Made by a program: the position numbers and the translations under genes. DNA of 48,712 nt from a virus: UHGV virus genome UHGV-1370921; one strand, 5' to 3'. Below are positions 1-48,712 of the stretch, in pieces (position 1 is the first letter of the stretch; each line of letters starts with the position of its first letter). The notes beneath the pieces are model-generated. The model did no database searches, was not told the origin of the DNA, and saw nothing but the letters and a program-made list of their open reading frames with translations.

Positions 1-10
1 GTTTTTTTTT

Positions 11-661
11 TTATAAATCCAAAAGTGTCGTAACCTGGCTGGCAACATTCGTTGCGGCTGTCTTCACATTGATGTAACCACGCTCAATCAGTCCTGATAT
101 GGATGTACTGGAAACATCGTTACTGTTCAGCTGATACTGTGCCGGTTGTGAACCGTTCGCCACACGGTCAAGCGTGACAATCTGCTGTAGTTCAGCAACA
201 AATATCAGTCCATTCTCATTCTCAGGGTCTTTAGAGCGCCCGATACGCCGAATGACCATATTGTTCAGCGTGATTTCGCCCGTATCCACTGTGAATACCT
301 GACCGGAGTACATGAAATCGAGCAAAGTGTTCAGTGTTGTACTGGAACGAGTTTCATTTGAGCCGCTCAACCACCCTGCGAATAGACCAGCACCTGCGGC
401 AATAAACGGATTGTCATCGACGAGATTCGTCAACGCCCCGGTAAAATCAGTGATACTAACTTTCAGTGGGTTGTTCGATACCGCACCCGTCATCGTGTAA
501 CGAATAGGTTGGTAAATGATATGGTCCGCAATTGGCGTACCTGTTTCAATAGGGTACTGCACGATATCCACGCTGGCATCAAGGTCATCAGACAGGACGG
601 CATCGAACTGAAGCGACCCAAGCTGTGGACCGCGCTTTACCAGAAGGTTAATTAAACTCAT
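11..661 (-). CDS. tail/baseplate hub-region protein (hypothetical structural)
   Basis: 216-aa ORF at the distal end of the tail operon, after the tape measure and transglycosylase genes. Stop TAA at 11-13. Role inferred from position only. Confidence 0.4.
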   Translation of the reverse strand: MSLINLLVKRGPQLGSLQFDAVLSDDLDASVDIVQYPIETGTPIADHIIYQPIRYTMTGAVSNNPLKVSITDFTGALTNLVDDNPFIAAGAGLFAGWLSGSNETRSSTTLNTLLDFMYSGQVFTVDTGEITLNNMVIRRIGRSKDPENENGLIFVAELQQIVTLDRVANGSQPAQYQLNSNDVSSTSISGLIERGYINVKTAATNVASQVTTLLDL

Positions 662-21088: not shown

Positions 21089-21376
21089 CACATACCCCGT
21101 TAAAACTCGTTCGGGGTACTTCATCGGGGTATGAAAAACTCTTTACCTTTCAATACTATACTACTTATTACCCTTATACCCTTATAAAATAGTAATTAGT
21201 ATAGTAGTAAGATAGTAAAAGAATGTATATATACAGCATACAAACAGTAATAAAAGAGAAGGGAGAATATAGCAAGAATGTACGGGGTTTTCGGTTATGC
21301 GCGTAAACCTATGATTGTGAAAGTAAATTTGCCACCCCGATAGCTCGGGTATTTCGGGGTAAAATGAGGTATTGAC
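21089..21376. repeat. 288-bp intergenic element copy B
   Basis: About 90% identical to 7916-8203, with the same hairpin, GGGGTA iterons and AT-rich core. It likewise ends at a TTGAC -35 box and lies upstream of a late operon (the terminase operon). Confidence 0.75.
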
Positions 21377-21400
21377 ACGGCAAACAACTCATGTAACAAT
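21372..21400 (+). promoter_or_regulatory. sigma70-like promoter TTGACA-N17-AACAAT
   Basis: In a position homologous to the promoter at 8199 in repeat copy A. The -10 is weaker. Confidence 0.4.
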
Positions 21401-47358: not shown

Positions 47359-47698
47359 TCTCGGTCACCGTTAATAATCCGTAGGAGGTCAACACGCTGG
47401 CGGTGACCGTATAAGTTTTGTTGTCGATGTCGAAATCGGTACTAAAACTGGTTAACTGCAGGACACCAGGAGTACCAGAGATACGTTCACGAAGGCGTGC
47501 TTCGCGGACATCCATAGAAGTTTGTTTGTTGAGTATCTCCTGAAACCACGGTGTGCCGTCGGTAACATCCCGGAAATACTCACCCAAAAACAGACGCAGA
47601 CGGGTACGTATCGTCTGTTCTATTTCCAGTTGTTCAGCGATGAACATCGAACCCTGGGTAACAATGTCACCGTCTTCATCTAATTTACGTACTGTCAT
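47351..47698 (-). CDS. baseplate protein in the W/gp25 position
   Basis: 115-aa ORF between the spike and J-like genes. No lysozyme-like motif was seen, so the role is positional only. Confidence 0.4.
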   Translation of the reverse strand: MTVRKLDEDGDIVTQGSMFIAEQLEIEQTIRTRLRLFLGEYFRDVTDGTPWFQEILNKQTSMDVREARLRERISGTPGVLQLTSFSTDFDIDNKTYTVTASVLTSYGLLTVTENG

Positions 47699-48399
47699 CA
47701 GTTATTCGGCCCCGTATTAGAACCACCGGAAGCAACGCCACCATGAGTGTGACCATTGAGTTCTTTACCATCCAGCACCAGAGAGTTCAGTGCGGTGATG
47801 TTCCCGTCTTTATCGATAGTCACACCATTGATACTCACTGTGCCGTTCGCAAGAAGTTGGACGTTGCCGTTCCCATTAGCCATTATGCACGAACCATCAC
47901 CCTTTAACCAGACGTACTGCGACGCGTCAACATTGCGCAAGCGTATCCCATCGTTAGAAAAACTTGCAATCAGGTTATCAAGTGAACGAATTCCCGGTAC
48001 AAACATTGCGTCCTGTTTGTGGTGAAAGCGTTTAACGGGGTTAGCAGCAATGCCGCCGGTCTGCTTCCATCCATCGATACAACGTTGACTGAAATGTACC
48101 ATACCTTCACAACCCGGATTGACGGCGAATTCCAGTACGAAGTCATCGCCCGGGAAACTTACGGGAACGTCCACGATGGGTGGCGGGTCGAACGTAGTTT
48201 TAGCGACATCATCAGTCCGGGTGATTCCCAGTTGAATCTGCGCACGTTGAGTATCCGGGTCGAACGTCAGCACGTAACCCGGGATACACGTGTACACGTC
48301 CTTCATGTTCTCGAAAAACGTGTCATTGGTGACGTTCTGTAAAAACGAGCGGCGCTGGTTAATGTCGGTCATGTCGCCCTCCTGTGAAAATAATGTCAA
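47698..48399 (-). CDS. baseplate spike protein (gpV/Mu gp45-like)
   Basis: 233 aa. The C-terminal GTVSINGVTIDKDGNITALNSLVLDGKELNGHTHGG has an HxH apex-like motif. RBS AGGAGGG. Confidence 0.5.
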   Translation of the reverse strand: MTLFSQEGDMTDINQRRSFLQNVTNDTFFENMKDVYTCIPGYVLTFDPDTQRAQIQLGITRTDDVAKTTFDPPPIVDVPVSFPGDDFVLEFAVNPGCEGMVHFSQRCIDGWKQTGGIAANPVKRFHHKQDAMFVPGIRSLDNLIASFSNDGIRLRNVDASQYVWLKGDGSCIMANGNGNVQLLANGTVSINGVTIDKDGNITALNSLVLDGKELNGHTHGGVASGGSNTGPNN

Positions 48400-48407
48400 G
48401 TATACTA

Positions 48408-48436
48408 TTGACAGTTACGTCAAACAATGTAATTAT
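48408..48436 (+). promoter_or_regulatory. promoter-like element TTGACAgttaCGTCAA-N-TAATTA (variant of the family)
   Basis: One mismatch from TTGACG-N4-CGTCAA. The downstream ~260 nt contain no ORF longer than 12 codons and end at the terminator that spans the window junction. Confidence 0.35.
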
Positions 48437-48694
48437 TCATTCACAGGCATATAGCACATGTGTCTTTAGCGGTCCGGGGTGTCCTATTCCTTCGCATCAG
48501 CGGGTAGCCGAAATGTGTAGCCATCGACTGGAGGTGGTCCAATCTTGCTGACGGGTAAGCCGTAAGTGACTAGAGTAATGTTGTGAAACATAACAACAGT
48601 TGCGAAACATGACAATGATAGCGAGATAGTTGAGTTAAGGGGCAGCCTTTACCTGAACTACTCAGCCCGCTGTATCATCTCTCTGTAGCGTTCA

Positions 48695-48712
48695 CCCGCC
48701 CTCCGTGGCGGG
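48695..48712 (+). terminator. intrinsic terminator hairpin completed by the T-run at window positions 2-12
   Basis: CCCGCCctccgtGGCGGG lies at the very end of the window. The window begins G + T11. Joined head-to-tail, the two ends form a textbook terminator. Confidence 0.5.

Follow-up and report, generated by a model that had tools for sequence, protein, structure and literature searches.

The window, that is, the whole 48,712-nucleotide stretch analysed here (UHGV virus genome UHGV-1370921), comes from a Jedunavirus, a Klebsiella myophage: the 413 bases around the feature under study have matches in 76 phage records, nearly all of them from Klebsiella Jedunavirus. Within the minus-strand tail/baseplate block of this genome lies an intergenic gap of 313 + 10 bases between the flanking open reading frames (ORFs), and the two ends of the record meet in it. 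On one side is a gpV-like baseplate spike gene, which starts with an ATG at 48372 served by an AGGAGG ribosome-binding site and is followed by the genes for a Baseplate_J protein and then a tailspike. On the other side is a Dit-like tail protein gene. Both flanking genes are on the minus strand, and a plus-strand RNA unit in the gap is therefore antisense to the tail genes and convergent with them. The features of the locus are as follows; the module names D1, D3, HA and TL were coined in this analysis.

1-12, plus strand: terminator tail, G + T11, overlapping the stop codon of the convergent Dit-like gene
11-661, minus strand: Dit-like tail protein gene (Pfam PF21821), converging on the RNA unit
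47698-48372, minus strand: gpV-like baseplate spike gene, first of the baseplate block (Pfam PF18352 and the GpV Apex motif)
48399-48427, minus strand: predicted leftward baseplate promoter, TTGTTT-17-TATACT, a weak consensus match; the record of KpV79 (NC_042041) marks the homologous 29 nt as a promoter
48408-48423, no strand: dyad TTGACA-N4-CGTCAA, arms present in 20 of 20 relatives bar one base in L016, central 4 nt variable
48408-48436, plus strand: predicted sigma-70-type promoter, TTGACA-17-AATTAT with an upstream TG, conserved; predicted start at about 48443-48445
48444-48523, plus strand: 5' two-thirds of D1, containing the core AGCGGTCCGGGG (covariance model R1, 64 bits, E 4e-14, match spanning 48444-48545)
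48445-48465, plus strand: D1 helix P1
48498-48517, plus strand: D1 segment CAGCGGGTAGCCGAAATGTG, within the 5' two-thirds
48524-48606, plus strand: complete D3, about 85 nt (alignment A2 and pair counts)
48530-48540, plus strand: 16S-complementary segment of D3, GGAGGTGGTCC (motif statistics)
48549-48566, plus strand: 18-mer core of D3, TGACGGGTAAGCCGTAAG (exact match)
48551-48563, plus strand: invariant hairpin H1 of D3 (alignment A2)
48578-48591, plus strand: GNRA hairpin H2 of D3, ATGTT-GTGA-AACAT, holding the first of two tandem boxes
48600-48605, plus strand: terminal TTGCGA of D3 (consensus YUGCGA), overlapped by the second box
48607-48668, plus strand: variable 3' region with a bulged hairpin, GAGTTAAGGGGCAGCCTTTACCTGAACTACTC, common to Geezett and L166, with compensatory inner-stem differences and present in the minimum free energy (MFE) fold
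48675-48687, plus strand: CU-rich stretch ATCATCTCTCTGT, just before the terminator
48695-48712, plus strand: terminator stem-loop, CCCGCC-CTCCGT-GGCGGG, identical in L166 and L050

The initial annotation had proposed that the ends of the record join into a terminator and that the record represents a closed or permuted genome. The joined ends do form a GC hairpin with a T-tract, in which a 6-bp GC stem with a predicted folding energy of -12.7 kcal/mol is followed by G + T11. In Geezett and LPKP33, whose records are opened elsewhere, the spike gene, the gap and a 216-aa gene follow one another unbroken, and the proposed adjacency of the tail gene at 11-661 to the baseplate block across the junction was thus found in the same order. 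In L166, an uncultivated relative, an identical hairpin (CACCCGCCCTCCGTGGCGGG) leads directly into C+T8+ACAAATCC, where ACAAATCC is the end of the Dit-like gene. For another Jedunavirus, IME346, a published analysis of the genome ends detected none that are fixed (PMC9007800), which is compatible with circular permutation. The records of 1611E-K2-1, KB2 and KLPPOU148 start or stop about 30 nt short of the gap end, near the same hairpin and T-run; these breaks suggest that a homopolymer gave rise to an artefact of assembly or of convention, and not that a physical end lies there. The JD001 record is opened 40 nt within the spike gene. The contiguity of the relatives across the junction, together with the IME346 result (PMC9007800), supports the proposal that the UHGV-1370921 record probably represents a closed or permuted genome whose sequence was cut open at a homopolymer. 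Its ends lie within a gene-like unit, and it ought to be handled as circularly permuted.

Predicted promoter and terminator, and variation of the gap

The promoter-like element noticed earlier at 48408-48436 has both hexamers at 17-nt spacing, scores 10/12 and is the best plus-strand site in the region. Promoter-type sites of at least 10/12 occur 14 times in the genome vs 7 in shuffles, and locally the figures are 2 vs 2.0. Matches of this kind do not exceed chance, and the case for the promoter rests on its conservation: 20 of 20 loci have it unchanged apart from the four middle nt of the dyad and a single spacer base that adjoins the -10 hexamer on its upstream side, and it is also retained in L050 and L082, relatives of 75-80% identity. 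The dyad at 48408-48423 may consist of two opposed -35-like hexamers or be the binding site of a dimeric protein. The leftward promoter predicted at 48399-48427 overlaps the rightward one. Two further sites of this type were observed in the window. A weaker promoter-like site (TTGTCA-17-TATGTT, 9/12) lies on the minus strand at 48615-48587, within the RNA unit, and TTGACA-17-AACAAT at 21372-21400 on the plus strand, the genome's one remaining case of a perfect TTGACA that has both an upstream TG and a 17-nt spacer, may be another host-type promoter.

The claim that the unit is terminated by the junction hairpin was supported by the relatives, as a GC hairpin followed by T6-11 is present at the same place in all 20 Jedunavirus-type loci that were extracted. 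Two unrelated hairpin sequences occupy this one position, indicating that terminator function rather than sequence is conserved. On the minus strand, a U-tract is absent after the junction hairpin. The comparison shows that the predicted promoter and the predicted terminator of the unit are conserved across Jedunavirus.

It had been stated that the region contains no ORF of more than 12 codons, which is correct for ATG starts (maximum 12) and incorrect for GTG starts, for which the longest ORF inside the unit has 15 codons. A 55-codon GTG ORF at 48384-48551 begins upstream of the promoter, and because relatives carry 1-nt indels within it, it cannot be conserved. A protein-coding moron was ruled out by the 15-codon maximum and the frame-breaking indels in relatives. 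The earlier view of a non-coding transcription unit of about 280 nt embedded in the tail operon as a small RNA or leader was supported in its first part, the gap being built like an autonomous plus-strand unit of about 278 nt, with a conserved predicted promoter and terminator and plus-strand covariation; a leader of the tail operon it is not, as it runs against the tail genes.

Among genomes that are otherwise 95-99% identical, the gap measures 290 bp, 353 bp (in the window), 460-600 bp or about 1000 bp, with 14 distinct lengths in 19 loci. Alignment of the loci showed conserved blocks with unrelated inserts between them, and in NC_071129 (BUCT_49532) and OR532827 an HNH endonuclease gene lies in the same gap, which is then about 1045 bp long. 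The minimal 290-bp version, with an intact D1 and the terminator, is found in many independent genomes. In the CU-rich stretch before the terminator, a motif of the TCTCTCTGT type is retained in most Jedunavirus variants despite differing flanks and is degraded in the distant L050. In L015, whose length equals that of phage PEAT2, some 50 nt (GTAACCATCGAGTGAGGGTATTTGATATGATTACTCTCACCTGTT) are duplicated in tandem within the gap at the HA/D3 boundary. These comparisons show the gap locus to be a hot spot of recombination.

Modules D1 and D3 and their relatives in other phages

Module D1 has a full length of about 130 nt and starts at the predicted transcription start. Its covariance model, R1, was built from diverse D1 copies and the search covered the extracted loci. 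In 30 diverse copies, 96% of the cells of the five-helix structure are paired vs 24-48% in slid controls, and at ten pairs both partners have changed. Read from the complementary strand, the conserved G.U pairs would become A.C, so the structured strand is the plus strand of the window. The window D1 is partial and has an incomplete set of the helices P1, P2, P4 and a long-range helix, its 3' third (P3/P4) being missing after GTAGCCA (48517-48523). By-eye comparison with LPKP33, in which the continuing sequence follows GTAACCA, suggests that a deletion between the short repeats GTAGCCA and GTAACCA may have produced the window copy, and D1 may be dead there, as it is without the 3' third that includes helix P4. 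L166 is without the other part of D1, and broken D1 copies are found in two natural genomes.

The 20-nt D1 core CAGCGGGTAGCCGGAATGTG is present in at least 120 viral contigs. It is also found in phages mEp390, epsilon15, phiV10, SPN1S, Stx2c phages and the P1-like D6, and in Klebsiella, Enterobacter and Kosakonia genomes. Most matches are in unannotated DNA, while in a few records an RNase III site or a "hypothetical protein" is drawn over them. Among temperate phages, 47-49 loci have D1 close behind the promoter that follows a cI-like repressor gene, with terminators and co-oriented genes beyond it, and it is sometimes repeated after reverse-oriented inserts. In the temperate phages of L026 and L042/L069, second, partly degenerate D1 copies follow reverse-oriented inserted genes, and each is preceded by a conserved CCACCGAGCCTGATGTGGTGAAAAGACAGGCA. 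A P5 hairpin after D1 has boxB-like GAAGA loops. In nine loci (L042, L074, L077, L097 and others) D1 and the P5 hairpin are followed, at about +134 from the core, by an rrn-type boxA (TTTGCTCTTTAACAATCTGGAT) that is nearly identical to the boxA of the E. coli rrn spacer. In Stenotrophomonas phage BUCT708 (L021, 1930-2620), 5-6 copies of a small hairpin, CCGGGAAAGACCGG, with a boxB-like purine loop surround the D1 unit.

In contrast to the window D1, the window D3 is complete: all invariant positions and hairpins are present and its row in alignment A2 fits the structure. The D3 core occurs in at least 120 viral contigs, and across 30 phages compensatory changes were found at five of the five pairs of H2. 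The tandem boxes reported earlier at 48584-48621 are real elements, the first lying in this covarying GNRA hairpin and the second overlapping the conserved YUGCGA end. At the 5' side of D3 is an anti-16S motif, GGAGGUG(A/G)UC, complementary to the 3' end of 16S rRNA; complementarity of at least 7 nt was found in 80 of 105 unique D3 copies vs 1 of 115 control windows. In other phages D3 precedes the ribosome-binding site of an accessory gene by 10-25 nt, and an ORF begins shortly downstream of it in 92 of 127 loci. These ORFs encode a 69-aa protein in 58 loci, Rha/KilA-type antirepressors and other small proteins, and their PHROGs matches are all of unknown function. Since ORFs directly follow D3 in other phages, D3 is elsewhere a 5'-UTR element. 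None follows in the window, where just a hairpin, the CU-rich stretch and the terminator lie downstream of D3.

Two further modules, HA and TL, occur in relatives and are absent from the window copy. HA is a hairpin with a conserved base, ACAAC...GUUGU, around 35-110 nt of unrelated sequence, and its stem covaries (90.6% paired vs 32-56% in slid controls). TL has a tRNA-derived frame consisting of an acceptor stem (UGUGGUG/CACCACA), a D arm and a T arm with a covarying stem, in which the anticodon arm is replaced by 30-110 nt of variable sequence; in some loci a real tRNA-Arg or tRNA-Met fills the TL slot. Individual inserts resemble host RNAs. The TL insert at 4600-4646 of L038, also found in L127, is like helix 11 of small-subunit rRNA (CUUAUCAGCUAGAUGGUGAGGUAAUGGCUCACCAUGGCGACGACGGG; Rfam SSU model, 33 bits, E 1e-7), and the HA insert of L050, just after D1, contains a canonical tRNA T-arm, GCAGAGTTCGATTCTCTGC.

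The modules recur in many unrelated enterobacterial phages and in varied positions. In epsilon15-like phages the unit is placed under a repressor operator and is flanked by genes for the head-tail adaptor (portal-region) on one side and terminase on the other. In D6 (NC_050154) D1 directly follows a tRNA with anticodon CAT (L146, 2331-2403) that is missing from the record annotation. Salmonella phage CF-SP1 has HA-TL-D3 upstream of a small membrane protein gene, and a Klebsiella lambdoid prophage has HA-TL after a tRNA array, between Q and the lysis genes. Context clustering identified no constantly linked protein gene; the neighbours (cI-like repressor, terminase, tail genes) differ by phage group.

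These comparisons show that the predicted RNA of the window comprises two modules under RNA-level selection, D1 truncated and D3 complete. Judged from the alignments, the predicted RNA is a chimeric, partly deleted member of a widespread family of modular structured phage RNAs, and the window copy looks like a deletion derivative.

Comparison with known RNAs and systems

Searches with Rfam 15 (including C4, GOLLD, ROOL, IsrK, AgvB, RNase P and tmRNA) returned nothing at the gathering score in the window or its relatives, and nothing credible at E <=10 in the window or the long relatives. A known RNA family was accordingly rejected, the hits being chance matches alone, such as mir-263 and TLS-PK1. 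ARAGORN found no tRNA or tmRNA in the window or the Jedunavirus loci. D1 showed no BLAST similarity to HK022 put, and R1 had no match in the HK022 immunity region. The RNA does not appear to be an antisense guide to its own genome, as the window RNA was no more complementary to the remaining genome than shuffles were; likewise, hypervariable inserts that target their own operons were rejected because cognate and non-cognate flanks were equal for 166 inserts. Exact complementarity of the window RNA to E. coli 16S, 23S and 5S rRNA was at chance level. Nor are the inserts general copies of rRNA, with one 16S-like case and, in BLAST against the E. coli rrn operon, the boxA match alone. An ERIC or other chromosomal repeat was also discarded, 8 of 5426 E. 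coli genomes having a match, each in a single copy. The folding energy of the whole RNA is unremarkable (z = -0.34), and the evidence for structure is therefore comparative, not thermodynamic. In the literature searched, no transcript or start-site data for any Jedunavirus and no paper on these RNA elements were found. Neither the modules nor the way in which they are shuffled, with tRNA-derived scaffolds around hypervariable inserts, were found in that literature or in Rfam, and most of the matching regions bear no annotation in GenBank and RefSeq records.

Several known systems share some features with the unit. Phage morons are autonomous insertions of promoter, gene and terminator between structural genes, as in HK97 and lambda. 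Like them, the window unit has its own predicted sigma-70-type promoter and intrinsic terminator, is placed between two late structural genes, and is a probably accessory element that varies between close relatives; unlike them, its cargo is a structured RNA and not a protein gene, and its RNA modules are common to unrelated phages. The C4 RNAs of P1 and P7 and the CI RNA of P4 are tRNA-like immunity RNAs with specificity loops that are processed by RNase P. The family resembles them in that its tRNA-like TL scaffold lies in early-operon leaders and has highly variable inserts and in that D3 often precedes antirepressor genes, and differs in that there is no Rfam C4 match, the inserts are without cognate complementarity to their own operons and the window is without TL. 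STAB-SD elements and ribosome standby sites are Shine-Dalgarno-like stabilisers in 5' UTRs, for example that of cryIIIA. D3 similarly has, ahead of the actual ribosome-binding site, a conserved, untranslated Shine-Dalgarno-like motif with complementarity to the 16S 3' end, but this motif is within a conserved multi-hairpin domain of about 85 nt and its ribosome binding is a prediction.

GOLLD and ROOL are large ornate RNAs of phages and prophages with variable regions, often beside tRNA genes and of unknown function (Weinberg et al., PMC5737381). By context, in prophages and near tRNAs, they are the nearest systems, and D1, HA and TL adjoin tRNA genes in other phages; in contrast to them, the present RNAs have no Rfam match, are found with Enterobacteriaceae hosts and have a modular, shuffled architecture instead of one fixed fold, and the window copy is without a nearby tRNA. 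The ncRNA arrays of UG27 reverse transcriptases in prophages are conserved in structure and diverse in sequence (bioRxiv 10.64898/2026.09.22.753630), as are the HA hairpins of the family, although here a linked reverse transcriptase is absent, the hosts differ and the window copy is without HA. Like HK022 put (PMC9378689), D1 is promoter-proximal in the early left operon of temperate phages, but it has no sequence or model similarity to put and differs from it in size and fold. A phage-borne non-coding RNA unit is an already known kind of thing, and the particular modules appear to be new.

Possible roles of the RNA unit

Our preferred reading, to which we give a little better than an even chance, is that the gap holds an autonomous plus-strand structured-RNA unit of about 278 nt without coding cargo, an "RNA moron", that acts in the following way. 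The host-type promoter at 48408-48436 would drive the structured RNA of about 278 nt, which would end at the hairpin and T-run straddling the record ends, so that transcription would not proceed antisense into the tail genes. The RNA would be made early, by host RNA polymerase, and it would be accessory rather than essential given the broken D1 copies in two natural genomes. At best guess, the unit would supply an accessory RNA early in infection, and this RNA would bind to machinery of the host. As for the mechanism, action in trans by engaging conserved host machinery is a tentative proposal that we rate well short of even. D3 would be its best handle, since the anti-16S GGAGGUG(A/G)UC beside the invariant and GNRA hairpins is predicted to pair with the 16S 3' end, and its placement upstream of accessory-gene ribosome-binding sites in other phages resembles a standby or stabiliser site. 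As no ORF follows the window D3, it would there hold 30S subunits or protect the RNA. Several results argue against this reading. A Shine-Dalgarno sequence that is vestigial or sequestered would account for the anti-16S motif just as well, the hypervariability is also expected from neutral decay, and D3 is elsewhere a 5'-UTR element and not part of a free RNA. Moreover, the promoter match alone is at chance frequency and the whole-RNA fold has z = -0.34, the window D1 is without its 3' third including helix P4, and complementarity to the rest of the genome and, by exact match, to E. coli rRNA is not above chance.

The same truncation of D1 in the window, together with the loss of the other part of D1 in L166, would also be expected of a decaying cassette, that is, a moron site that has lost its cargo (an ORF, a tRNA or a tRNA-like module) and yields a functionless by-product RNA. 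The absence of an ORF after D3, which normally precedes one, the widely varying gap lengths and breakpoints and the MFE z of -0.34 fit this explanation as well. We nevertheless consider it rather improbable, as promoter and terminator are kept in 20 of 20 loci, the minimal 290-bp version keeps an intact D1 and the terminator in many independent genomes, and the window D3 is complete with its invariant positions and hairpins. The overlap of the two promoters raises another explanation, in which the unit controls the late tail and baseplate genes in cis: a strong rightward promoter would compete with a weak leftward one, and the plus RNA would pair with minus-strand read-through, leading to interference or to RNase III cleavage between messages. 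The leftward promoter annotated at the overlapping position in KpV79 and the conserved dyad of opposed TTGAC hexamers are consistent with such control, and tail transcripts probably read into the gap because the minus-strand hairpin is without a U-tract. However, the same modules covary in unrelated phages with nothing antisense to them, an interference device needs no conserved RNA structure, and the leftward promoter is a weak consensus match, which makes cis control unlikely in our view.

The temperate loci bear on a third explanation, that D1 is a cis-acting RNA of processive antitermination like HK022 put and that the Jedunavirus unit is a relic or variant of it. In its favour, D1 in those 47-49 loci is the first element behind the promoter that follows a cI-like gene, and terminators and co-oriented genes come after it; further copies stand beyond reverse-oriented inserts, the rrn-type boxA follows D1 in nine loci, and the P5 hairpin after D1 has the boxB-like GAAGA loops. 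Against this stand the lack of similarity to HK022 put by BLAST or model R1 and the different design of put, which has two stem-loops in about 70 nt (PMC9378689), vs the different fold of about 130 nt in D1. In addition, the Jedunavirus and epsilon15 units end at a conserved terminator with nothing co-oriented beyond it, and the window copy is truncated; we regard a put-like role as quite unlikely. An element acting as DNA, either a pac site for packaging or a hairpin at which recombination takes place as at integron attC, is very unlikely. Four records, the window included, do break at or near the junction, the HA hairpins are attC-like (AAC...GTT bases, a bulge and a variable terminal structure) and the locus is mosaic, but conserved G.U pairs would be A.C mismatches on the opposite strand, the elements are always co-oriented with promoter, terminator and tRNAs, IME346 is without fixed termini (PMC9007800), a break at a T11 run is what an assembly artefact typically looks like, and a linked recombinase is absent.

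Beyond the preferred reading of an autonomous RNA unit lies a broader idea, that enterobacterial phages have an RNA system which has gone unrecognised and of which the window copy is a stripped-down extreme. HA and TL scaffolds, expressed early with D1 and D3, would display hypervariable inserts, and these RNAs would be decoys or baits for ribosomal components or for defence proteins of the host that bind or cleave RNA; some inserts would mimic stable host RNAs, namely the 16S helix-11 look-alike in L038 and the tRNA T-arm in L050. This idea is speculative and we think it unlikely to be correct.

Phage genomes are annotated almost wholly by their proteins, and in about 90 Jedunavirus records, several of which belong to therapy candidates, the gap is blank or filled with a doubtful "hypothetical protein". 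The covarying domains are also present in well-known phages, including epsilon15, phiV10, SPN1S, mEp390, the P1-like D6 and Stx phages. If expressed, they would constitute a new, tractable class of phage RNA located at early leaders, beside tRNAs and ahead of accessory genes.
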